32,000 bases of DNA from Pirellulaceae bacterium (GCA_026004775.1 BPJU01000019.1:85471-117470); one strand, 5' to 3'; positions 21,221 to 32,000 are shown, numbered from the stretch's first letter. Notes: a model not told the origin generated them from the sequence alone. A program made the numbers and translations.

Positions 21221-22129
21221 TTAGGATTCGCCTCGCGTTGCCGCCGGCGGGCTTTCTGCCCGAAGCATGATGAGGTCTTGGCCGAGACCATCGGGCAGCA
21301 CGTCAAGGCGTCCGGAGGCGGCGATCAGTTGAGCCGGAGGAATATGGCTAAGGCGAAACGGGAAAAGGCTGGGGGCGTTGAGGAGTGCGCTTAAGCGCAA
21401 ACTTCCGGTCGAGTGCGCGCGCAGGTGAGCTTCAGCCAGCCATGCCGCGAGCTTCGCATTATCTATGGCTAGCGACAGACCCGCAAAGTAGGTACCTTTA
21501 GGGACTGGTGCATCACCCGCCTTGCCGTCATCAAGAACCCCCCAGTCCACCATAGCGCGTAGAACACGCCGAACAGCATCTTTGACCGTCGGCCGTTCAC
21601 CGTATTGCTCCATGAGGCGGCGATGTACCTGCTTTGGAGTTACCGCTCCTTGAAGCCTGAGCAGCCGCCCCACATGGGCTGCTACGGACCACCAGAACGG
21701 GTAAACTGCCATCGTCATGCCCCAGTGGACCGCGATATGGTATTCACGAGGCAGGTATAAGAGAAGCTCGAGACCATCGTGCTGAAGGGGACGGAGTTCG
21801 CGTGGCGGCCGGACCCAGATCTTCATCAGGATGGTGATCACCTTCTCCCGATTGCCGCGAATGCGTCTTTGTGTCGCGCGCCGTGCGTCATGCGTCGATC
21901 TTGGCTCGGGACCTTCTGACGCTTGAGGCTTGACGCTCGACGCCCGGACGCCTCTATCGACCGACAGTTTGTCTTCCAGCAACTCTTGCAGGGCGTTGTA
22001 GATTGACGCCTCGTCGTTTCCGGCAAGCACCAGGTTGGCCGTTCTCTGTAGCCATTCAAGACGGACCCGCTGGCTAAAACCGATCTGGGAAAACCGTCGG
22101 TCGGTCGCGCGTCGTGTGTCGTGCGTCAT
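21221..22129 (-). CDS. brxA: BREX-associated protein in the brxA position of a type 3 BREX locus (BrxA/DUF1819-like; identity tentative)
   Basis: Its ATG overlaps the pglZ stop (ATGA at 22126-22129). The call rests on position plus loose similarity to the DUF1819 layout (HWGMTMAVYPFWWSV; GERPTVKDAVRRVLRAMVDWGVL). It contains an internal repeat of its own N-terminal 12 aa. Confidence 0.45.
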   Translation of the reverse strand: MTHDTRRATDRRFSQIGFSQRVRLEWLQRTANLVLAGNDEASIYNALQELLEDKLSVDRGVRASSVKPQASEGPEPRSTHDARRATQRRIRGNREKVITILMKIWVRPPRELRPLQHDGLELLLYLPREYHIAVHWGMTMAVYPFWWSVAAHVGRLLRLQGAVTPKQVHRRLMEQYGERPTVKDAVRRVLRAMVDWGVLDDGKAGDAPVPKGTYFAGLSLAIDNAKLAAWLAEAHLRAHSTGSLRLSALLNAPSLFPFRLSHIPPAQLIAASGRLDVLPDGLGQDLIMLRAESPPAATRGES

Positions 22130-24243
22130 GACGGGTCTCCTCCGGATGAATTGCGACGCGAGACGTTGGACGCCGGACGCGGTGACGCTCTTTCGATCTG
22201 GACAAGAGGCACGATCAGCTCCTCGACACTAATTCCACCATGACCGACGAGGGTTTTACCCTTCCGCACGAAAGCAGCCCGGTTCGGAGCGATGAGGACG
22301 AGGTAGTCGTCTGGGAGACCCACCGAGGGCCACTCCAAGGACTGCGGGAATCGCGCCTTGATTTTAGCCCTGAGCCTGGGATCGGAGTAAACACGCACGC
22401 GCTCGCCGCGCAGGTCCGCAATTGCCCCTTCGGCAGGCCGCCCTGCCCCTGTCGCCTCGATGTTGCCGTGGTCCGAGGCAAGGTAAACCTCGAAACCGCG
22501 GTTGTGGAGCAGGCGGATGAGGTCCCGCATGAATCCCTGACGGGCCCATTGCCGCACCTGGTTATGCATCCCCGCCGAACCCAACTCCATGCCGTGCATG
22601 ATCCGGTCGACCTTGTCGATGACCAATCCGACGACACGTAGCTTGGGCCGGGAGAGTAACTCGGAGACCTCGTCCATGTCCCCATCGCCCAGCCCCTTGC
22701 CGTAAGCCACCTCATGCAGCGTCAGTCCCTGATCGACCCAGAACTGCGTCCAAAGGGCCGGCTCCTTGTCAGTGGTATGGATACTCGCCGGGAAGTAGAT
22801 CGGCGGCTTGCCGGCAAAGGCGGCCTGCCGGGAAACCGAGGTGATAGTGGGTATCCAGGCGAAGACAGCGTTCTCACGGAACAGCATGCTCGAATCTTGC
22901 TCCTTAAGTACGTCGCGCAAGGCGATCCATTGATCCAGGGCGAGGCCATCGACCATCAGGAAAGCCAGCTTTCCTGCTGGCGGCCGCGATGAGGACTGAG
23001 TGCCGAGCAACGAGTGGGCAAAAAATCGCGGGAGGTGGTGGAGCATAACCGGATTGGTGGCCGGTAAATTGATGAGGCTTGCATAGTGTTGAAGCACCCA
23101 TTCCTGGAAGCGCGAATCTACCAAGCAGGTGATACCCTCAATGCGCTGTCTGTATCCTTCTCCCTCTCCACTCAGCACCCAGTCCTCAGTACTCAGCACT
23201 TTCAGTTGTGCCCAACGGTAGGCGAAATGGAGCCACTCGCCATGACGCGCCCCTACCGTAGGGATCGTCTTCTCGATGGAATCCAGCAGCCCCTCCATGC
23301 GGCGGCGGCGGTCCTCCGTGGCGGAGACTTGGATGCCGTAAGCCACCCAGGTCTTGGCGAGCGCTTGCGATTGCTCGTGAGGAACCGGCTGGAGCAGGCC
23401 TTCGAGGAAAAGGTTGTCGATGTAAACGCGGACATCGGGGTGGTCAAACGGTAGGTGCGGGGTGCGTAGTGCGTGGTGCGTTTCGGCCTCGCGCATCTCG
23501 CACTTCGCACCGAGCACCTCGGCTGCGAAGCGGTCGAGGAACACCGGCCAGCGCTCCTGCAGGAACGCAAAGAATGCTTCCGCGTCCGGAATGATGGCTT
23601 CCAGAGGCCAATCCTCGAACAGGCCGTTTTGACGAAGCACCTGGATTAAGCGCTCATCGAGCATGTCCGGGATTCGTTGTCCGCTGTAATGGCGGCGCAG
23701 CAAGACCCGCAGCAGGTCCGATGGCTGCTTGATGAGTTCCGGTGCGATCTCGAACACATGACGGAGGACGAAATCCTTCGTAGCGTTGTCGCCGAGCTGC
23801 CCCGGCGCGTGCTTCGCCTGCGCATCGAACAAGGCGTCGAGACAGGAGCGGTCGAGTGCCGCTACCACGGGATAACTGAGGTTCGGGAAGAGATCGCCCA
23901 GGTTGAACGAGAGCTTGCGGCCAGCCTGCAAGAGGTCGTAGGGCAAGGCATCGAGATCGCTCGAAGGCGATCTCAGCACCACTACCAGGTCGGTTTCCTC
24001 GCCACGGTCCCAGCGGGAGCGGAACTTGGATTCGTAGGCATAGCGAAAGGCGACATGATCCTCGAACGGGATCAGCTCAAAACCCCGTTCCCGGATCCCT
24101 TCCAGAACACCTTCTTCAAGCAGCAGGCCATCCGGATCCGCGGCCAGGGTAAGCCGGGCGACACCCGCTGTGAACTCCTTCAGTATCTCCGCCCGCCAGG
24201 AATTGAACCACGGATCAACACGGATCGACTCGGATGAATTCAT
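22126..24243 (-). CDS. pglZ: BREX alkaline-phosphatase-superfamily protein PglZ
   Basis: FLMVDGLALDQW, IPTITSVSRQAAFAG, DKVDRIMHG, LASDHGN, GHGGISVEELIVPL. I prefer ATG 24243 (MNSSESIRVDPWF), which overlaps the GxxExxY stop as ATGA. The track start 24261 is 6 codons upstream. Confidence 0.9.
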   Translation of the reverse strand: MNSSESIRVDPWFNSWRAEILKEFTAGVARLTLAADPDGLLLEEGVLEGIRERGFELIPFEDHVAFRYAYESKFRSRWDRGEETDLVVVLRSPSSDLDALPYDLLQAGRKLSFNLGDLFPNLSYPVVAALDRSCLDALFDAQAKHAPGQLGDNATKDFVLRHVFEIAPELIKQPSDLLRVLLRRHYSGQRIPDMLDERLIQVLRQNGLFEDWPLEAIIPDAEAFFAFLQERWPVFLDRFAAEVLGAKCEMREAETHHALRTPHLPFDHPDVRVYIDNLFLEGLLQPVPHEQSQALAKTWVAYGIQVSATEDRRRRMEGLLDSIEKTIPTVGARHGEWLHFAYRWAQLKVLSTEDWVLSGEGEGYRQRIEGITCLVDSRFQEWVLQHYASLINLPATNPVMLHHLPRFFAHSLLGTQSSSRPPAGKLAFLMVDGLALDQWIALRDVLKEQDSSMLFRENAVFAWIPTITSVSRQAAFAGKPPIYFPASIHTTDKEPALWTQFWVDQGLTLHEVAYGKGLGDGDMDEVSELLSRPKLRVVGLVIDKVDRIMHGMELGSAGMHNQVRQWARQGFMRDLIRLLHNRGFEVYLASDHGNIEATGAGRPAEGAIADLRGERVRVYSDPRLRAKIKARFPQSLEWPSVGLPDDYLVLIAPNRAAFVRKGKTLVGHGGISVEELIVPLVQIERASPRPASNVSRRNSSGGDPS
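23171..23198. repeat. 4 x 7-nt heptamer block (CTCAGCA CCCAGTC CTCAGTA CTCAGCA) inside pglZ
   Basis: Read directly. It encodes part of KVLSTEDWVLSGE. Confidence 0.7.
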
Positions 24244-24632
24244 AAGACAACCCTTTTCCATTCGAGTCGTGACCGGCGAAAGTTCAAGATTAGGCCCAGG
24301 GTTAGTCCTGCGATCTTGAGGTAGTTGAGCATCTGGCCGATCTCATGGTCTGTGATTCTCTCGATCACCTTCGTATCGACGACGATCTTGTCGAAGACAA
24401 TCAGGTCGGGAACATACTCCCCGACCTTCACACCTTTGTAGACGACATCGAAGCGAGGTTGCTGCCGGTAGGCAATTCCCTGTCGTTGGAATTCGACAAC
24501 TAAGGCATTCTCATACGGTTTTTCCAGCAACCCATGCCCAAGTGTATTCAAGACTTCCATTGCACAGCCGATGATACGTCGTGTTTCATCTTCATAAATC
24601 AATCTGTGTCTATCCGTGTTCATCCGGGGTTC
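24205..24632. mobile_element. 428-bp inverted-repeat-bounded unit carrying the GxxExxY gene
   Basis: Left end, plus strand 24205-24240: GAACCACGGATCAACACGGATCGACTCGGATGAATT. Right end, minus strand of 24601-24632: GAACCCCGGATGAACACGGATAGACACAGATT. 22 of the first 25 nt are identical. Both end types recur in the 81-bp element at 26243-26323. Confidence 0.6.
24240..24623 (-). CDS. GxxExxY-family protein (PD-(D/E)XK-like fold)
   Basis: 127 aa. IIGCAMEVLNTLGHGLLEKPYENALVVEF..VYKG..VGEYVPDLIVFDKIVVDTK..QMLNYLKIAGLTLGLILNF. ATGA overlaps occur at both ends, with the brxHII stop and the pglZ start. Confidence 0.85.
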   Translation of the reverse strand: MNTDRHRLIYEDETRRIIGCAMEVLNTLGHGLLEKPYENALVVEFQRQGIAYRQQPRFDVVYKGVKVGEYVPDLIVFDKIVVDTKVIERITDHEIGQMLNYLKIAGLTLGLILNFRRSRLEWKRVVL

Positions 24633-27600
24633 CCCTCCACACGGACAAGAAGCAGAGGCGCCATTTCCGGCAAAATCAGCGACCTGCGCTCCAGTTCCGC
24701 CCGAAATCGCTCTTCCTCTTGTTCCAAGAGACTCAGGCGATAGTTACGGACCTGGGGCAGTCCAACGCGCTCGATGGCCCTGCGTCGCGCAGCGAAGGCA
24801 TATTCGCCCTTCTCACGCTCCCGAGCAAGACGCTCCCGGTGGGCCTGCACCAGCTCGTCGTAAACCGTCTTCCCCTGTCGCTCGGCCGCGGCCCGGAGTC
24901 GCTGGAAGGCTTGATGCGACGTCTCGATGTCCAGATGCGCCAGGATCGTGGGTTCCATTACAAGCAGAAGATCCCAGATGTGCCGCGCAGTCGGCGCAAA
25001 CACCCGATCGTCGTCGGCCAAGAACAAAGGCATGATACGCCTCCGGCCGGTCTCGGGTCCCGGGTCCGGAGTCACGAGTCCGTCAGGACGACTCACGAAC
25101 TGCGACTCGTGACTCATGACCGAAATCTGCCAGAGCGACCAGAAACCCGCGATCCCTGGAGCAAGGCCAGAAAGGGTGATGACCGGGACCGGTTGTCCTG
25201 GGGCAAAGGGAGGAAGGCGCATGGCCAGCCCACGCACCCTGGGATCTTCCAGCGTCACGTGGCGGCTCAACGGCTTCTCTTCAGCCTCCTTGCTGGTGAA
25301 GACGACATTGGTCAGTCGCTCGCCATCGGGCCAGGTGAGATCCCAGGCGCCGTTCTTTCTCTCAGCCTTGCCGCCGTGAGCCTTAAGGTAGCTTACCGTC
25401 ATGCGCTCCACCCAATGCGGGAGCGGGTGGGCCAGCAGCCGCTGGGCCTCACGAGGGTCCAAGTCCTCGGTCGAGCCAAGCACGGATGCGCTCTGGCGAG
25501 ACTCCCTCGCCTGTTCCTGAATGCTTTTCACCACGTCATCGATTTTCGTCCCTACCGCTTCGGGATGGAGAATGGCTTCCACATAAAGATCATCGAAGAG
25601 CTGGCCGGCCTGGGCAGAGTCAAGCACGTCACCGGTCTTATCAATGCCGAGCTGCTCGAAGATGACCGCCAATTTCTCCTCCAGCACCTCCAGGACACGA
25701 TGCTCGACTGACTCCTCGAACACAAAGTTGATGGCACGTACGGTGTGGGTCTGGCCGATGCGGTCTACCCGCCCGATGCGTTGTTCCAGGCGCATTGGGT
25801 TCCAGGGGATGTCGTAATTGATGACCACATGGCAGAACTGCAGGTTGAGACCCTCACCACCGGCGTCCGTTGAGATGAGGATGCGGGCATCCTTGGCAAA
25901 AGCGTCCTGGACCCGCTTGCGCTCCTCCATGTCCATCGAGCCGTTGAGGCACACCACCTCGAAGCCTCGCTCGGTCAGGAACTCGTACAGCATCTGCTGG
26001 GTCGGCACGAACTCGGTGAACACCAGCACCTTGAGAGCCGGGTCGCCTTCCTCGGCCTGGAGGCGGTAGATCCAGTCCAGGAGCGCTTCGGCCTTGGCGT
26101 CCGGGCCGTGGCTTTCGCAGCGCTTCGCCGCTTCCAGGAGCAGCTTCACCTCGGCCCGTTCATTCTTTAGTCCCCCCAAGCGGGTAGTCAGCAGGGCTTC
26201 GATCTGCTCCTGCCCTTCAAGATCGGCCCATTCATCGGGAGAGAACCACGGATGAACACCGATGGACTCGGTTTCTTCGTTCAGAAGTTTCATCTGTGTG
26301 TATTCGTGTCCATCCGTGGTTCTTTCTTCGAGCGCTTCGAGGCGCCGCTCCAGGGTGGTGCGGATGGCGCGGGTGCTGGAGACCACCAGGCGCTGCATCA
26401 GGATCATGAGGAATCCGATGTAATGGCGATTTTCAGCGATGGCCTGGTTGTAGCCCTCGCGCACGTATTCGGTGACCGCCTCGTAGAGAAGCCGTTGATC
26501 CCGGTGGCGATCCTCCCAGGAGATCGGTGCAAGCTCCGTGCGCCGGGGTTTAAAAAGGGAATTGCCCTGTGCGTCGATGGCGCGGCGCTTCTCCGTGCGG
26601 ATGACGTAGGGCTGTACCCGCTCCTTCGAAATGCTCTCTTCATCGGGAAACGCTTCCGGGTCTAGCAAAGAAAGGAGGCGCCTAAAATGATCCGTCTTCC
26701 CCTGGTGCGGTGTGGCGGATAGCAACAGCAAGTAGGGCGCGGCCTCGGCCAGCCCCTGGCCGAGCTTGTAGCGGGCCACCTGGTCCGTGCTGCCACCCAA
26801 GCGATGTGCCTCATCCACGATGACCAGGTCCCAGCCGGCGGAAATCAGGTCCTCGAAGCGCTCCCAAGCCGCGCCGCCAGCATTTGATGGGGGCTTGGCG
26901 GAATCCATGGAAACAACGACCTGGTCAAAGGCTCTAAAGGGGTTTGCATCGGAGGTGCGGAGTGCTGAGTGCTGAGCTATGAGAGCTGAGTTATCGCCTT
27001 GCCGCTCAGTCCTCAGTCCTCGTTCCTCATTCCTGTGGATTGCCGAGATGCGTTTGAAGGTTTTGTAGTCCTCCGACATGATCGGATGAAACTGCTCATG
27101 GAAGTGCATCGCCATCTCGGCAATCCACTGAGTCACCAGGCCTTTCGGGGCGATGACCAGCGTCCGCTTCACCAGGCCCCGGAGCTTGAGCTCCCGCATG
27201 ATGAGACCTGCCTCGATGGTCTTGCCGAGCCCCACCTCGTCCGCCAAGAGATAGCGCACGCGGTCACCGGAGACGACCCTCGAGAGCGCTCGAATCTGAT
27301 GCGGCAGCGGGATGACGGACGATTCGATGGGCGCAAGCAGGACGTCCTGAGTCAGCGCATCGGCGACCCGCGCCACCGCGGCGAGATAAGCGATCCCGTC
27401 CACGGTGCCGACACTTGCCTCCTGCACGGGCCGGAGGCGCGTGGCGGGCAACCGCACGACGGTATCCTTGCCCGGCAGCCAGACACGGCAAACGGTCTCG
27501 CCCCAGAGCGTCTGGGTCTCGATGACCCGGCAGAGCTCCCCGTGCTCGGGGCTGTAGTACCACTCGCCTACCACCAGATTAGCAATTTCATCCTTTCTGT

Positions 27601-27640
27601 ACGATCGCCTTGATGGCGCTGAACCATTCACGAATCTCAT
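24620..27640 (-). CDS. brxHII: BREX type 3 SNF2-family helicase BrxHII
   Basis: 1006 aa. LADEVGLGKTIEAG (motif I), VIVDEAHRL (motif II), LLLSATPHQGK, and a C-terminal helicase lobe (LVFTEF, STDAGGEGLNLQ, YDIPWNP, QRIGRVDRIGQ). The track ATG 27640 overlaps the upstream gene by 53 nt; CTG 27577 or GTG 27574 are alternative starts. Confidence 0.88.
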   Translation of the reverse strand: MRFVNGSAPSRRSYRKDEIANLVVGEWYYSPEHGELCRVIETQTLWGETVCRVWLPGKDTVVRLPATRLRPVQEASVGTVDGIAYLAAVARVADALTQDVLLAPIESSVIPLPHQIRALSRVVSGDRVRYLLADEVGLGKTIEAGLIMRELKLRGLVKRTLVIAPKGLVTQWIAEMAMHFHEQFHPIMSEDYKTFKRISAIHRNEERGLRTERQGDNSALIAQHSALRTSDANPFRAFDQVVVSMDSAKPPSNAGGAAWERFEDLISAGWDLVIVDEAHRLGGSTDQVARYKLGQGLAEAAPYLLLLSATPHQGKTDHFRRLLSLLDPEAFPDEESISKERVQPYVIRTEKRRAIDAQGNSLFKPRRTELAPISWEDRHRDQRLLYEAVTEYVREGYNQAIAENRHYIGFLMILMQRLVVSSTRAIRTTLERRLEALEERTTDGHEYTQMKLLNEETESIGVHPWFSPDEWADLEGQEQIEALLTTRLGGLKNERAEVKLLLEAAKRCESHGPDAKAEALLDWIYRLQAEEGDPALKVLVFTEFVPTQQMLYEFLTERGFEVVCLNGSMDMEERKRVQDAFAKDARILISTDAGGEGLNLQFCHVVINYDIPWNPMRLEQRIGRVDRIGQTHTVRAINFVFEESVEHRVLEVLEEKLAVIFEQLGIDKTGDVLDSAQAGQLFDDLYVEAILHPEAVGTKIDDVVKSIQEQARESRQSASVLGSTEDLDPREAQRLLAHPLPHWVERMTVSYLKAHGGKAERKNGAWDLTWPDGERLTNVVFTSKEAEEKPLSRHVTLEDPRVRGLAMRLPPFAPGQPVPVITLSGLAPGIAGFWSLWQISVMSHESQFVSRPDGLVTPDPGPETGRRRIMPLFLADDDRVFAPTARHIWDLLLVMEPTILAHLDIETSHQAFQRLRAAAERQGKTVYDELVQAHRERLAREREKGEYAFAARRRAIERVGLPQVRNYRLSLLEQEEERFRAELERRSLILPEMAPLLLVRVEGNPG
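26243..26323. mobile_element. 81-bp cargo-less palindromic derivative (MITE-like) of the GxxExxY unit, in frame within brxHII
   Basis: 13-bp perfect termini AGAACCACGGATG (26242-26254) and CATCCGTGGTTCT (26311-26323). The left half matches the 24205 end at 27/30 and the right half matches the 24632 end at 27/31. It is translated as RTTDGHEYTQMKLLNEETESIGVHPWF. Confidence 0.65.
26963..27032. repeat. Inverted pair of 4 x 7-nt heptamer blocks inside brxHII
   Basis: TGCTGAG TGCTGAG CTATGAG AGCTGAG (26963-26990), a 14-nt spacer, then CTCAGTC CTCAGTC CTCGTTC CTCATTC (27005-27032). It encodes HRNEERGLRTERQGDNSALIAQHSALRT. Confidence 0.75.
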
Positions 27641-29450
27641 CTAAAGCGCCACGTTCCCGGAGCCGATCCAACGTCATTGCGGGTGCTACCTCGTTGTTTA
27701 GTCGCTGCTTTGCACGCCCCTCCTTCTTTTTCCGTTTCTCGTCGCCCAACTGCTCCCATGGCGCCGACCCTTCCTCGCGCTCATGGATAGCTCTCGCCAC
27801 CGCCTCAGGGACGTCATTCTCGTCTGATACCTTTACTTCCACACCGAGCACCTCATTGATTGCATCGGGATGCAGATAATTCTCGGCTTCGCGCTTCCTT
27901 GTTAAGAACGCCTTCGACCCATCACCGCGTTTGTTCACCTCATTCACATGACTCTGATACTTTGGAGGGGAATCGGTATCGCGGTCATATATGTGAATCT
28001 CCGGGCGATTCAAGGGCCTGAGGTACTGGCTGTTCACCCAGTCCCGCAATGTGCTCCCGCCGAGCGGCAAGAACACGACTTCTGGTGTATCATCTGGCTC
28101 AAAACCAACATCGTCCCCTGCGGCCAGTAAGACCATCGCCATGCTCTTCAAAAACGCCACATCATTGGGACCCTCGACGCACACGAACACACGCACTCGG
28201 TTATCCGGAATCACACCAAGATCATCGGCTATCCGCTTGAGCACTTCATCGGTGCCCTCCTCTACCACCCGCGTGTTATCGTGCGCACACCGGACATACC
28301 GCAGGGCATCCACAGGTATCATCTCGGCCAGACCGGGAACGTGCGTCGTGATCACAACCTGACATCCGTCGGCCGAAGCAAGGTCTTTGAGCGCTTCAAT
28401 CACCATGCGTTGGTTGGATGGGTGTTGTGATGTTTCCGGTTCTTCAATCGCATAGATGATGTTCGATCTGTTCTCCTCCGTGCGTCGGCGCTCCGCTTCG
28501 GCGCGGAAGAACCCAAGAAGGATTAGCCGGCGAACGCCACTTCCCCGCTTATTGACAGGAATCTGATCGTCTGTCGTAAGCGCCAGTTTGAATAAAGAGT
28601 CCCATTTAGGATCAGAGCGGAATGTTGGACTTAGTTCCTTTGATAAGTTTGGGTCTAAGTCTTTGAGTTTTTCCAACGTCCGTCTAGCAACATCCAAAGC
28701 AGCATCCCGAATCCTATTTTGAATATTCTGCAACTCGTTTGCCAGCTCAGAAATCGCTTGTCGGATGGCAAGCTTCATGGGATCTTGGACTTCGCTGTCC
28801 TCGTCCGTGCTTGGACGGTCTGCGCGGAAGAGAGCAAAAATCGGTAAGTAGTGTTGGATCTGGTCCCAGATTTTTTTAGCGTCCTCCTTATTCAGTTCAA
28901 TTTCTGTCAGCGACAGTTGCAGATTCTCACAGGAATCCCAGAGCGCCTTGCGAATGGACGGGTTGCTCCTCAGATCGACGCCGTCAGTGTCAACACTCTT
29001 TTCCTGAAGTCGCTTCTTGAGGTCCGAATTCTTGAGCTGGAGTAGATCTGCATAGCCATCAGCGGTTGGATGTTTTGCGAACGCCAGAACACGTGGCTTA
29101 GGTGACTTCACGGAACAATCGAAGACCTTGTGTATCTCCAGATCACCATCTTCGTTTAAGAGGTACTCTTCCCTCAGATTCGTTGTTGAAGTAGCATCCA
29201 ACGTAAGGGAATCGGGCAACTCATCAAAGACGCAGCCAATGCGAACTTCCTTGTCCTCTGCGTAGACGCACAGGTCCGATGTATCGAACTTTACGAGCGG
29301 AGAATCAAAGAAGATGCCCAGTGCATCGAGTATCGTAGATTTACCGATGTCGTTTCGCCCTATGAGAGCTGTTAGGTCTGGATGAACCGGAATCCGGACT
29401 TCGCCCCGGTAGCCTCTGAAATTCCGTAATACCAATGTTTTGAGACGCAT
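27588..29450 (-). CDS. OLD-family ATP-dependent nuclease-like protein (ABC-type ATPase plus C-terminal TOPRIM-like domain)
   Basis: 620 aa. Walker A GRNDIGKST; NKRGSGVRRLILL; Walker B-like IIYAIEEPETSQHP. The C-terminal part has VFVCVEGPNDVAFL, LPLGGS, IYDRDTD and KREAENYL (TOPRIM-like Glu and DxD). GGAGGAGGGATAAGGTC precedes the ATG. It is more AT-rich than its neighbours. Confidence 0.75.
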   Translation of the reverse strand: MRLKTLVLRNFRGYRGEVRIPVHPDLTALIGRNDIGKSTILDALGIFFDSPLVKFDTSDLCVYAEDKEVRIGCVFDELPDSLTLDATSTTNLREEYLLNEDGDLEIHKVFDCSVKSPKPRVLAFAKHPTADGYADLLQLKNSDLKKRLQEKSVDTDGVDLRSNPSIRKALWDSCENLQLSLTEIELNKEDAKKIWDQIQHYLPIFALFRADRPSTDEDSEVQDPMKLAIRQAISELANELQNIQNRIRDAALDVARRTLEKLKDLDPNLSKELSPTFRSDPKWDSLFKLALTTDDQIPVNKRGSGVRRLILLGFFRAEAERRRTEENRSNIIYAIEEPETSQHPSNQRMVIEALKDLASADGCQVVITTHVPGLAEMIPVDALRYVRCAHDNTRVVEEGTDEVLKRIADDLGVIPDNRVRVFVCVEGPNDVAFLKSMAMVLLAAGDDVGFEPDDTPEVVFLPLGGSTLRDWVNSQYLRPLNRPEIHIYDRDTDSPPKYQSHVNEVNKRGDGSKAFLTRKREAENYLHPDAINEVLGVEVKVSDENDVPEAVARAIHEREEGSAPWEQLGDEKRKKKEGRAKQRLNNEVAPAMTLDRLRERGALDEIREWFSAIKAIVQKG

Positions 29451-29454
29451 GACC

Positions 29455-29645
29455 TTATCCCTCCTCCCCAGAACGGGTGAGCGCCTGGTCGTACCACATC
29501 AGGAGCTTGGGGTCCTCCTGGAGGACGTTCTCGGGGAGCTTGCGCGCCACGGCGATGATGGTCGCGTAGTCCCGCTCCTGCCATGCCTTCTTGAAGCCGG
29601 CGCGGACGGCCTCGAGGCGGAACACCTTCAGGCGCCTCTGCGTTG
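29455..29645 (-). pseudogene. Detached C-terminal ~60 codons of pglXI, in another reading frame
   Basis: Only the last part of track ORF 29455..30039 looks protein-like: RRLKVFRLEAVRAGFKKAWQERDYATIIAVARKLPENVLQEDPKLLMWYDQALTRSGEEG. It follows directly after the pglXI frame ends at EFEEYRAVQRRGA*. A single restored nucleotide near 29640-29660 would join the two. Confidence 0.6.
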
Positions 29646-32000
29646 GACTGCGCGGTACTCCTCGAACTCGCGCAGCAGGGCCCGCTCGCGGAGCTTCTCC
29701 AGGTCGCCGGCCTTGTTCGGGTCCGGGACGTACCAGCGGTCTTTTGCGCGAGCGATGAGGACTGAGGACTGAGTGCTGAGTCGGCCGTTCCCCTCCGCCG
29801 CACGGCCGGAAGCCAGCTCTTCCTGGATGATTTTGCGGAGGTCGGCGCTTTGCTTCATCCAGGAGACAAGTTGGGCTGGAATCGGGCCCTTGCCGTCGTA
29901 GCGGAGGAAGTTCTGCTCCAAAAGTTCCATGAGCTCGAGCGGCTTTTCGTGCTTCTGCCAGCCGCCGATCTCCTTGAGAAACTGCGGATGAAGCTCCTGG
30001 AAGGTCTGGGGCTTTCGGGTGAGCTGCTGCTTGAGCCACTGGATGGCGGAAGATTCATCGGTGACCCAGATCTCCAACTGTAGGACTTCCTTGCTTGTCA
30101 TGCGTTTCTTGTCGTATTCCGCCACCTGCTCGGGCAGGAAGTACATCCCGTCGCGCTCCGGGAAGCGCTGGGCAAGCCCGGCGTAGAACTCCGCCGCGGA
30201 GAGCGGCACCGTCACGCCACGCTGGACATGGAAAGCCACCATGCGGTCGAAGAGCAGGTAGTTCTGTCGCTCCGCGATGACCTCCGCCTTGCCGTCCTTG
30301 GAGACGAACACCGGCAGTTGCTTCAGGTGCGTGCGAACGAAGTCCCAGACGCCTTCCTCGGTGCCAGCGGTCAGCTTGAAGCGTTCCTCAAGACCGCTAT
30401 TGGGTTTGTAGGCGGAGATGACCAGGTCTTGTTTGACCGCCGTGCTCGTCACCTGACGGTAGGATCCCTGTCGCTTGTCAAGAGTGCGCACATCTGCCAC
30501 CACGAACCCGGCAGCCAGCATCGCTTCCTGAATGGCGTTCCAGACGGCGTTGCGAGAATTATGGAATACCACAGTCATCCACCGGCCCGGTTTGAGTACC
30601 CTGAAATACTCTGCGAAACATTGCTGCATCAGGTGCTGGTACTCGTTCAAACCCTTCTTCTTGGCCTTGTCCACAATGGCTTCCGGAGTGGCGTTGGTCA
30701 CCACCCGGTGCCAGGACTCCACCAGGAAGTTCAGGTCGGCATAATAGATGTTCTCACCAAAAGGCGGGTCGGTGAAAATGTAGTCGATGGTGTTGTCGGC
30801 CAGGTCGAAGTGCCCGGCCGTCGCGGTGGTAATCGAGACTAAGTGACTCTTTGTACTCAGTTCCGCGAAGGTCTTTACAAGCCGCTTGAGTTTCCCCTCA
30901 ACAACATACCAGGGCGATACCTCTGAGATTTGCGACGGCACATAATATACAAGGGGCATAGCGCCGTTGCTTTGCGAGTAGCGGTGCGGGCCATATCTAT
31001 TCTGAATGTTCAAGCTTGTTATCGCCTGCTCAACCAAAAACAACAACATGTGCCGGATACGCTTGTCCGGCCATGCCTGGGCCTTGCGCCACAACGCCGC
31101 CAGGGCGTGGGCGGCGCGGGGGAGAAAGAAGTGATGGACGTGGGTGAATCCTTTCGGTTCGATTCGGGAACCGTGATACATCTGGGCAGTTGGAAAGCGA
31201 TTTACCGGAACATCTGCGGGAAAGGGCAGCATCGCAATTCGTTCGATAATCTCACGGTCATATTCATCAAGATGCTTTTCACATCGCTGCTTGCCTACAC
31301 TATAACTAATCAGTACAGGTACGAATTTGACGTGCTTCCAGGGTCTTCCTGAAGCGGGATCGACGCGGGATTCAAACACACGATCCAGGTTTCTTTTGTC
31401 AAGCTCTGCCCCGCAATGCGGGCAAGCGAAGGTTTCCCTCACCTTATTGGTCTCCGGGTCCAGGGCCTGCTCCAGAAACACCACCTCGCCCGCGCAGTCC
31501 GGGCAAGTGAACATCTCGCTCCAGACCGTATATTCGATACGCCCCTTGCTCTTACCGTCGGTATGCAGGGTTTCGTACATCCAGCCGATTTCCTGCTCTA
31601 CCTCGTCGAGGATCTGGCGCGCCGCGCGTGCAAATTCATCCACATCGAAGGACAGATTGTAGTTGGCAGCGATGAAGGTGGCGGCAGGCGCGAGATCGCC
31701 CAGCACCACACAGCGCGGCCCCCACTTAGGTTTATCCCGGCCTTCCTTTTCCCATAAGGCTTCGAGATTGCGCTTGTAGCTCTCCGGCGCGGAGCCGCAC
31801 CATTGTGCTGCTACGCCTGTCATACCGGAGCCGCAGAAGCCGTCCAGAACGACGTCTCCGGGCTCGGTGTAATGGAGGATGGATGGTACGATGGCCAAAT
31901 GCGGCACCTTGGTGTGATAGGAATGAGCCTTGTAGATCGGGTCCGTTTTGCCCACGCTGACATCGACCGCGAACGGCTCCTTGTTGTAAGGCACGTTCGG
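29628..32000 (-). CDS. pglXI: BREX type 3 N6/N4 DNA methyltransferase PglXI (5' end at or beyond the right edge; 3' end truncated by a frameshift)
   Basis: SYHTKVP...GDVVLDGFCGSGMTG (motif I), IDYIFTDPPFGENIYY (motif IV), and a CxxC...CxxC zinc ribbon (FTCPDCAGE...FACPHCGAEL). The track M at 31994 is a GTG and the frame stays open to 32000. Confidence 0.85.
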   Translation of the reverse strand, partial: PNVPYNKEPFAVDVSVGKTDPIYKAHSYHTKVPHLAIVPSILHYTEPGDVVLDGFCGSGMTGVAAQWCGSAPESYKRNLEALWEKEGRDKPKWGPRCVVLGDLAPAATFIAANYNLSFDVDEFARAARQILDEVEQEIGWMYETLHTDGKSKGRIEYTVWSEMFTCPDCAGEVVFLEQALDPETNKVRETFACPHCGAELDKRNLDRVFESRVDPASGRPWKHVKFVPVLISYSVGKQRCEKHLDEYDREIIERIAMLPFPADVPVNRFPTAQMYHGSRIEPKGFTHVHHFFLPRAAHALAALWRKAQAWPDKRIRHMLLFLVEQAITSLNIQNRYGPHRYSQSNGAMPLVYYVPSQISEVSPWYVVEGKLKRLVKTFAELSTKSHLVSITTATAGHFDLADNTIDYIFTDPPFGENIYYADLNFLVESWHRVVTNATPEAIVDKAKKKGLNEYQHLMQQCFAEYFRVLKPGRWMTVVFHNSRNAVWNAIQEAMLAAGFVVADVRTLDKRQGSYRQVTSTAVKQDLVISAYKPNSGLEERFKLTAGTEEGVWDFVRTHLKQLPVFVSKDGKAEVIAERQNYLLFDRMVAFHVQRGVTVPLSAAEFYAGLAQRFPERDGMYFLPEQVAEYDKKRMTSKEVLQLEIWVTDESSAIQWLKQQLTRKPQTFQELHPQFLKEIGGWQKHEKPLELMELLEQNFLRYDGKGPIPAQLVSWMKQSADLRKIIQEELASGRAAEGNGRLSTQSSVLIARAKDRWYVPDPNKAGDLEKLRERALLREFEEYRAVQRRGA
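29753..29780. repeat. 4 x 7-nt heptamer block (CGATGAG GACTGAG GACTGAG TGCTGAG) inside pglXI
   Basis: Read directly. It encodes part of GRLSTQSSVLIA. Confidence 0.7.

Follow-up and report, generated by a model that had tools for sequence, protein, structure and literature searches.

A GxxExxY gene and a gene-less hairpin in one type 3 BREX operon: probable members of a widespread palindromic cassette family resembling rRNA intervening sequences

Intervening sequences (IVSs) in rRNA have been known since 1990. The one in the 23S rRNA of Coxiella has been described as a selfish element of 428 nt, with a 28-bp terminal stem, three tandem GACAGAT heptamers ahead of the start of its S23p gene, and excision by RNase III (PMC4990558); S23p genes have also been reported inside cas operons, without explanation (PMC3936711). 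Among other palindromic elements, the Correia inverted repeats are cut by RNase III, and Rickettsia palindromic elements (RPEs) occur as in-frame inserts (PMC10969869). Here we report on two cassettes bounded by inverted arms in a stretch of 32,000 nt from a Pirellulaceae bacterium (GCA_026004775.1 BPJU01000019.1:85471-117470; hereafter the window, meaning the whole stretch that was analysed), both lying in a type 3 BREX (bacteriophage exclusion) operon: a long one that carries a gene of the GxxExxY/PDDEXK_3 family (PF13366), whose function is listed as unknown (PMC3424549), and a short, gene-less one inside the helicase gene brxHII. The 23S rRNA IVS is the closest known system. We consider it somewhat probable that both belong to one family of palindromic cassettes, very widespread and similar to rRNA IVSs, whose members are copied by a nuclease-driven process; the recurrence of the same design across many phyla points to a widespread, largely undescribed kind of selfish or mobile DNA. 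We found no published description of the GxxExxY cassette or of its arms, in a search that left out most subscription journals, so that one may have been missed.

The two cassettes and the genes that hold them are located as follows:

24240-24623, minus strand: GxxExxY/PDDEXK_3 gene, 127 aa (PF13366 E=9e-37, TIGR04256 E=2e-39)
24602-24632, minus strand: 5' arm of the long, gene-bearing cassette, GAACCCCGGATGAACACGGATAGACACAGAT, made up of three 10-nt units
24205-24243, minus strand: 3' arm of the gene-bearing cassette, ATGAATTCATCCGAGTCGATCCGTGTTGATCCGTGGTTC, encoding the PglZ extension MNSSESIRVDPWF
26243-26323, minus strand: gene-less in-frame copy in brxHII (5' arm 26292-26322; loop 26270-26291, 22 nt; 3' arm 26243-26269)
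24620-27640, minus strand: brxHII, SNF2-type helicase of BREX type 3, 1006 aa
22126-24243, minus strand: pglZ, BREX-3 phosphatase (NF033449 E=3e-271; another upstream ATG lies at 24261)

We searched the window for the 21-nt motif GAACCACGGATGAACACGGAT, allowing up to three mismatches, and found four sites, at 24205(+), 24632(-), 26243(+) and 26322(-); 100 shuffles of the window gave no match. An inverted-repeat search joined the arms into a gene-bearing pair (24205-24243 with 24594-24632; 39 nt, 79% complementary, 350 nt apart) and a short pair (26239-26259 with 26306-26326; 21 nt, 90% complementary, 46 nt apart). Between the two copies, similarity is 90% for the left ends and 87% for the right ends, and the ends come in the same order. 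These results bear out a first-pass annotation of the window, made from the sequence alone, which had described the GxxExxY open reading frame (ORF) as bracketed by related ends in inverted orientation, with both end types recurring in the same order, and in frame, inside brxHII without a gene between them; the perfect 13-nt termini that it reported for the short copy are also there (AGAACCACGGATG at 26242-26254, and CATCCGTGGTTCT at 26311-26323). In each arm, GAACC leads into roughly three 10-nt units in tandem (CACGGATGRA and variants), and Tandem Repeats Finder gives a period of 10 at 24209-24235.

The arms of the long cassette are also coding sequence. The 5' arm contains the stop of brxHII (TGA, 24620-24622) and the start of the GxxExxY gene (ATG, 24621-24623), both within the GGATGA at 24620-24625; the last codons of BrxHII (..EGNPG*) and the first eight of the GxxExxY gene (MNTDRHRL) derive from it. 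In the 3' arm, TTATGA (24240-24245) combines the GxxExxY stop with one start of pglZ. The two ATGA overlaps re-create coupling, so the brxHII/pglZ operon stays intact. That the ends supply these stop and start codons and the pglZ start region had been proposed before and holds; in addition, the 3' arm gives PglZ 11 more N-terminal residues than the native MGSWRDQIL, and the NF033449 profile match to PglZ begins only at residue 24. The short copy (81 nt) corresponds exactly to BrxHII codons 440-466, RTTDGHEYTQMKLLNEETESIGVHPWF, and where the consensus arm would place a TGA in frame it now has GAATAC; its predicted hairpin has a free energy of -37.2 kcal/mol (z = -5.4). The window contains inverted-arm cassettes, one gene-bearing and one gene-less, that leave every reading frame of the BREX operon working.

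Orthologous loci show both sites with and without the cassettes. The loci compared carry PglZ and a PglXI-type methylase, with BrxC in two of them; the window's BrxHII is about 80% identical to their helicases, and homologues at that level of identity occur across many phyla. At the brxHII/pglZ junction, five loci are filled (the window, L120, L121, L127, and L174) and four are empty (L122, L123, L124, and L125); for example, the junction cassette and arms of the window recur in L120 (Desulfoglaeba alkanexedens) and L121 (Dissulfurirhabdus thermomarina), and the junction of L123 (Acidothermus cellulolyticus) is empty. The empty junction (…GGAGGCACCCATGGGTAGTTGG…) reads …GTGGAGGGAGGCACCC-ATGGGTAG-TTGGCGT…, in which ATGGGTAG is the native stop/start overlap of brxHII and pglZ, and its products are BrxHII …VRVEGGTHG* and PglZ MGSWRDQIL…. 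At the filled junction BrxHII ends …VRVEGN(P/H)G* and PglZ starts MNSSESIRVDPWFNSWRAEIL…, and the cassette has taken the place of some 14 nt of native sequence. A second, independent GxxExxY insertion occurs in L195, a more distant BREX-3 locus; it lies some 24 nt upstream of where the native gene stops, and the native ATGAGTAG is kept.

At the site of the short copy, which is a linker between the two helicase lobes, 94 of 121 aligned helicases are empty (RRLEAL-EAPQEQLTLFPMVSE-EDWADL). Four of the 121 contain a hairpin with CACGGAT arms (the window, P0055, P0058, and P0078), four others a homologous hairpin with CGCGAAT arms, and about 12 have CTGAG-type arms; the closest relatives of the hairpin-bearing helicases are mostly empty at the linker. 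The 81 nt of the short copy stand in place of about 33 nt of linker, a net gain of 16 aa; the read-through of the copy as a 27-codon segment, as first described, is exact, but it is not a clean 27-aa insertion. Judged by these alignments, which supply the empty sites and the BrxHII comparison that had been asked for at the outset, both copies are confirmed as true insertions, polymorphic among orthologues. The two sites within a locus agree in arm type: both BREX sites have CGCGAAT arms in L126, and both have CACGGAT arms in the window. The brxHII genes of L214 and L215 are 90% identical at the DNA level, with sharp drops in identity only at insert sites; the hairpin patch of L214 and its immediate flanks are those of L126, which is otherwise more distant, and the patch is absent from L215, which suggests that patches were transferred by recombination.

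In L124 and L125, hairpins with CTGAG-type arms occupy the linker site of the window's hairpin. The L124 loop (ATGAAGCTGCTCGACGAAACA) is clearly homologous to that of the window (ATGAAACTTCTGAACGAAGAAACC) although the arms are unrelated, suggesting that arms were exchanged around a retained core. Two origins for the loop were considered. The first, that the short copy is an internal-deletion derivative keeping 5' codons of the GxxExxY gene, is doubtful: the loop peptide KLLNEET does look like the N-termini of GxxExxY proteins, but this resemblance is partly arm-encoded, other hairpin loops are unrelated to it, and the homologous loop of L124 lies between unrelated arms. The second, that the loop is native BrxHII sequence, was rejected, since the similar ELTLI in L126 is arm-encoded and hence coincidental.

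The cargo belongs to its family with a wide margin over the profile cut-offs (TIGR04256, 134.5 bits against 35; PF13366, 126.4 bits against 22). In two homologue alignments, G31-L-L-E34-K-P-Y37, P72-D73, and D83-T-K85 vary little or not at all, and the AlphaFold model (predicted local distance difference test score 85) gives weak matches to the PD-(D/E)XK fold; from sequence and model, the cargo looks like a working nuclease. We found at least 8,000 homologues. Among the best 120 of these, 101 are exactly 127 aa long, and the N-terminus M[ND]T[DN]xHxL is arm-encoded. Between orthologous junction cassettes, the ratio of nonsynonymous to synonymous divergence (dN/dS) of the cargo is 0.03-0.08 at dS of 0.6-0.9, indicating that the protein is maintained by selection.

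We scanned genomes, one per species, with the arm motif GAACCMCGGATSRACACSRAT, and obtained matches at at least 119 loci in at least eight phyla, when about nine would be expected by chance (calculated for 37 bits and 1.2e12 positions). The matches listed come from Verrucomicrobia, Planctomycetes, Lentisphaerae, Kiritimatiellae, Acidobacteria, delta-, alpha- and gamma-proteobacteria, Bacteroidota, Spirochaetota, and Elusimicrobia. Most of the listed copies are gene-less and have an inverted partner at a distance of 50-270 nt; in five pairs spaced 435-502 nt apart (L037, L051, L042, L006, and L083), a GxxExxY ORF lies between the arms, with its start within the arm. Starting instead from metagenome GxxExxY loci, in 63 of the 73 that could be evaluated the sequence around the start recurs, inverted, beyond the stop, and in none of the 73 shuffled controls does it do so; a GxxExxY gene inside an inverted-repeat cassette, as first seen in the window, is therefore the rule for this subfamily. 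The arm starts 8-9 nt before the ATG, whose place in the arm is fixed in the same 63 of 73. On the three points that the first-pass annotation had set beforehand (whether the motif occurs elsewhere, whether orthologues keep the 27 aa, and whether GxxExxY genes go unflanked), the results all fell on the side of its proposal.

Most cassettes (47/63) follow a co-directional ORF that ends between -60 and +45 nt from the cargo ATG. Genes of restriction-modification, BREX or toxin-antitoxin systems make up at least 14 of the 35 distinct neighbours upstream (by Pfam, HsdS, HsdM, the HsdR C-terminal domain, PglZ, HepT, RhuM, DUF4391, and NYN; by sequence, BrxHII, PglXI, and a type III restriction subunit), and the rest are housekeeping genes. 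Only 7 of 82 short hairpins (∼8%) lie within open frames, so in-frame copies like that of the window are a minority. No target-site duplication was seen at 67 of these 82 hairpins, and the others have only 1-3 nt, as chance expects. In the loci that we inspected, no transposase gene lies beside the cassettes. We also looked for vehicles, and rejected phages and plasmids as such: 2.9 million viral contigs gave only seven motif matches and no GxxExxY relative, and 72,556 plasmids only four distant matches. Rfam returned only sub-threshold, microRNA-like matches on the hairpin, so a known RNA family was rejected as well, and, apart from a 16S gene 2.3 kb away in L162, neither the element nor 18 related loci gave an rRNA match.

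The ends had also been described as coding-compatible, and a direct test in 41 arm pairs contradicted the idea that they are so universally. A 10-nt unit, which is no multiple of 3 and includes ATGA, might have placed a stop and a start in all three frames of the 5' arm and kept every frame of the 3' arm open; the 5' arm closes one or two frames and never three. The 3' arm is open in all frames in only 23 of the 41 pairs, and an ATGA occurs at the cargo start in 18 of the 41.

Other contents are found between similar arms. In L021 (5295-5918), CACGGAT arms enclose a 189-aa ORF (MDTDKHGYSKVPEPLF…) without a Pfam family match, a third type of cargo. S23p genes (23S_rRNA_IVP, PF05635; four-helix-bundle, Avd-like proteins) occur at other BREX-3 junctions, at 1535-1915 in L120 and at 689-1078 and 5597-5977 in L121, and each has inverted arms on its two sides that consist of tandem units peculiar to it (GGGGAAACGGGGAAT; TCCAAGG; GCTGAG). 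Gene-less tandem arrays of 5'-arm copies were seen in L014 (4030-4200, directly upstream of a CRISPR array), in L126 after the brxHII stop, and in L047 (1285-1633).

The arms evolve as pairs. Where the variants (CACGGAT, CACGAAT, CACAGAT, CGCGAAT and others) differ, the two arms have changed together: we counted 102 double-change cells, compared with 43.9±8.4 after shuffling (0 of 500 shuffles as high), in an alignment that was pre-selected for at least 20/30 complementarity, which inflates the percentage paired but not this contrast. Three pairs divide into GC (21-23) and AU (18), and no more than two cells are G·U or unpaired. Between the short copies of the window and L120, at dS = 0.6, the arms are identical at 56 of 58 positions and the loop at about 11 of 22; the arms are thus far better kept than the loop, so that constraint or homogenisation acts on them as nucleic acid. 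A constraint on RNA only was rejected, since on the sense strand G·U (G·T) mismatches (40) are not above A·C mismatches (43). The nearest neighbour in the protein core shares the variant-encoded residue 7 in 75% of cases (32% expected), and the arm variant is common to other arms on the same contig in 22 of 32 cases (69%, versus 28±11% in shuffles, none of 1000 as high).

We propose that the arms would be a cis-acting site and the GxxExxY nuclease the trans-acting factor. What the nuclease recognises would be either the tandem sites of the arms or a hairpin or cruciform extruded from them. After cleavage, repair by recombination, a homing-like gene conversion, would carry copies of the arms to new or empty sites, whether or not the gene went with them, and would keep all copies alike. 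In RNA, the arms would form an IVS-type stem cut by RNase III. That the nuclease moves or maintains the arms is our inference, and such a mechanism would parallel the dependence of the REPIN hairpin doublets on the RAYT transposase, with a different enzyme. The patchy distribution, the many gene-less copies, the identity of arms across phyla, and the housekeeping contexts fit a mobile cassette better than a stable module.

Several points weigh against this reading. Both the action of the nuclease on the arms and the movement of cassettes are deductions from sequence. Other cargo is present within such arms (the L021 ORF, and S23p with other arm families), so the cargo need not be a mobility enzyme. 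No known transposition chemistry fits the loss of native sequence at both sites without a target-site duplication. A simple insertion also leaves unexplained why the short-copy loop is homologous between unrelated arms at the same site in L124. The absence of a G·U excess speaks against selection on an RNA stem only, yet names no DNA mechanism. Finally, orthologous junction cassettes diverge in step with the flanking brxHII and pglZ, indicating that the junction cassette has long been inherited in place, a misfit with a purely selfish homing gene, which should decay. Thus, of the earlier suggestion of a selfish or homing-type element, the insertion at a gene junction with the operon left intact stands, but the junction cassette is not a recent hop, having co-diverged under purifying selection.

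The strongest alternative, although we think it rather unlikely, is that the arms are RNA-level operon devices (an IVS-type stem, RNase III processing, and translational coupling) that tune the expression of BREX and restriction-modification genes, and that GxxExxY is a host-beneficial accessory defence gene; the cassette would then be unable to move by itself, and would spread only together with its operons. Co-divergence with the flanks and strong purifying selection on the cargo (dN/dS ∼0.05) fit a stable regulatory or accessory module of this kind, as do arms kept well beyond synonymous sites, the share of restriction-modification, BREX or toxin-antitoxin genes among the upstream neighbours (at least 14/35), the position directly after a same-strand gene (47/63), and the precedents of IVS stems (PMC4990558) and Correia elements (PMC10969869) as RNase III substrates. 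It is harder to reconcile with the patchy presence of cassettes among near-identical BREX-3 alleles, with different cargo and arm families at the same junctions, or with housekeeping genes as the neighbours of about half of the cassettes. Gene-less hairpins between genes, spread over many phyla, make up most copies, the arms lack a G·U bias, and GxxExxY is not among the defence proteins of the PADLOC library. Moreover, an RNase III site within the coding sequence of brxHII would destroy that mRNA.

We find it less probable still that the arms form an independent family of the REP (repetitive extragenic palindromic) or MITE (miniature inverted-repeat transposable element) kind, moved by an unrelated enzyme, with GxxExxY as a passenger caught between two arms. 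Short hairpins do far outnumber gene-bearing copies, the same arms enclose other cargo in L021, and tandem arm arrays exist without a gene (L014, L047, and L126). A mere passenger would not be expected, however, to have its ATG at a fixed place in the arm (63/73), with an arm-encoded N-terminus and a length of 127 aa that thousands of homologues conserve, or an arm variant that is co-inherited with the protein core and matches the other arms on its contig; nor do the inspected loci have a transposase gene beside the cassette. Chance similarity, low complexity or coding constraint without any element, for which one could cite the shortness of the arms and their being read as protein in the window, is already refuted by the shuffles (0/100 with a match), the genome scan (the 21-mer at no fewer than 119 loci, about nine expected), and the orthologues with empty sites, and most copies elsewhere are non-coding.

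A broader idea, which we offer only tentatively and think less likely than not, is that GxxExxY nucleases, and perhaps also S23p/Avd-like proteins, would drive pan-bacterial hairpin cassettes that spread without a transposase. By cutting at the arms or their extruded hairpin, and by recombinational repair, arms with or without a gene would reach operon junctions, rRNA helices and tolerant protein linkers, with the rRNA IVS as a special case and defence operons as the main habitat.

The remaining features of the operon and of brxHII are the following:

21.2-32 kb, all genes on the minus strand: type 3 BREX operon
29455/29628-31994, minus strand: pglXI (PADLOC PglXI, 1199 bits)
27588-29450, minus strand: AriA-like (PARIS-type) AAA_15 ATPase, between pglXI and brxHII
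21221-22129, minus strand: brxA (BrxA 9e-96)
25052-25121, minus strand: second hairpin-like in-frame insert in brxHII, stem GAGTCACGAGTC / GACTCGTGACTC, of another arm family, only in some homologues about 80% identical
26955-27034, minus strand: third in-frame insert in brxHII, inverted CTGAG-type 7-nt arrays, only in some homologues, minimal form RRIAQEDNLWQSHPQ

The operon belongs to BREX type 3, as the type 3 PglZ, the PglXI methyltransferase, BrxHII, and BrxA are all in the window; brxC and brxF are outside it. The slot of the AriA-like ATPase varies in other BREX-3 loci, which have there an SMC-like ATPase, YopA, SLFN/HATPase, a 267-aa unknown protein, or a GxxExxY or S23p cassette. The pglXI gene appears frameshifted: its ORF stops at 29628 (…EEYRAVQRRGA*), and the conserved C-terminus (RLKVFRLEAVRAGFKKAWQERDY…LMWYDQALTRSGEEG*) is encoded beyond it in a different frame, as far as about 29455. 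A pseudogene, an error in sequencing, or phase variation may account for this. The third brxHII insert adjoins a perfect 16-bp inverted repeat (27035-27050 with 27113-27128), and further 7-nt tandem arrays (of the CTCAG/CTGAG type and others) are found within pglXI, pglZ, and the 5' end of brxA, at 29756-29785, 23169-23200, 23454-23481, 21917-21943, and 22104-22127; these may be arms of more in-frame hairpins. The BrxA profile match starts only from residue 80. Two BrxHII homologues of about 1085 aa (P0045 and P0077) contain an inserted GIY-YIG domain (PF01541), which may be another type of nuclease insertion within brxHII.

These cassettes would link the origin of the rRNA IVSs, a 30-year-old question, with the small genes that interrupt defence operons and with in-frame palindromic inserts in proteins, and they suggest a testable role for two large orphan families, GxxExxY/PDDEXK_3 (with its at least 8,000 close homologues) and the 23S_rRNA_IVP four-helix-bundle proteins. 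A 21-nt arm that is identical across at least eight phyla is a rare and tractable conserved cis-element, with a candidate partner protein encoded inside. For annotation, arm-encoded peptides (MNTDxHxL, SIRVHPWF) create false N-termini, extensions, and hypothetical proteins, and the cassettes may be miscounted as components of defence systems.

Among known systems, the free-standing homing endonuclease genes (intronless homing, as in phage T4) are, like the gene of the long cassette, small nuclease genes between conserved genes; they are present or absent at one site among related alleles, with patches whose flanks are co-converted. We see filled and empty alleles and, in L214, a patch with its flanks, but the junction cassette co-diverges with its flanks; homing genes, for their part, need no inverted arms and leave no scattered gene-less derivatives, and for GxxExxY the cleavage of an empty site is putative. 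The RPEs resemble the short copy in being palindromes that lie in frame in unrelated protein genes and are translated as extra peptides in tolerant regions; unlike the cassettes, they are confined to Rickettsia, measure about 150 bp, and have no known gene-bearing parent, and only the ∼8% of short copies noted above lie inside ORFs in our family.

The bacterial MITEs (Correia of Neisseria, ERIC, and Nezha) share with the cassettes a length of 80-270 bp, terminal inverted repeats, co-transcription with neighbours and, for the short copy, occasional in-frame intragenic positions. The terminal inverted repeats of a MITE are present here (21-nt arms, 90% complementary, in an element of about 80 nt). 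MITEs, however, leave target-site duplications and derive from insertion sequence (IS) elements with DDE transposases, and neither was found for the cassette, whose gene-bearing parent encodes only a 127-aa PD-(D/E)XK protein. The cassette is therefore not a classical MITE, and the first proposal of an autonomous element with its MITE does not survive in the strict sense (no target-site duplication at 67/82, and native sequence replaced at both sites). The REPIN/RAYT system similarly combines many short gene-less hairpin doublets with a gene that has those sequences, inverted, on its two sides, has an arm variant shared within a genome, and leaves no target-site duplication. RAYTs are HUH/Y1 transposases, usually single-copy, with genus-specific repeats, whereas the cassette cargo is PDDEXK_3, without the HUH hallmark, is multi-copy, and has an arm sequence shared across phyla.

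The 23S rRNA IVSs (of Coxiella, Leptospira and others) differ from the cassettes in their host, which is rRNA helix 25 or 45 and not a protein-coding BREX operon, and in their cargo, a four-helix bundle in place of a PD-(D/E)XK protein; the units of the cassette are 10 nt long, its arms supply stop and start codons and are translated in one copy, and its cutting by RNase III is predicted from the stem. In both, terminal inverted repeats form a long stem in an element of about 430 nt, tandem short repeats (GACAGAT, three to four times in Coxiella) come right before the start of a single small ORF of about 125 aa, and gene-less versions exist; and S23p cassettes of IVS build occur at other BREX-3 junctions (L120 and L121).

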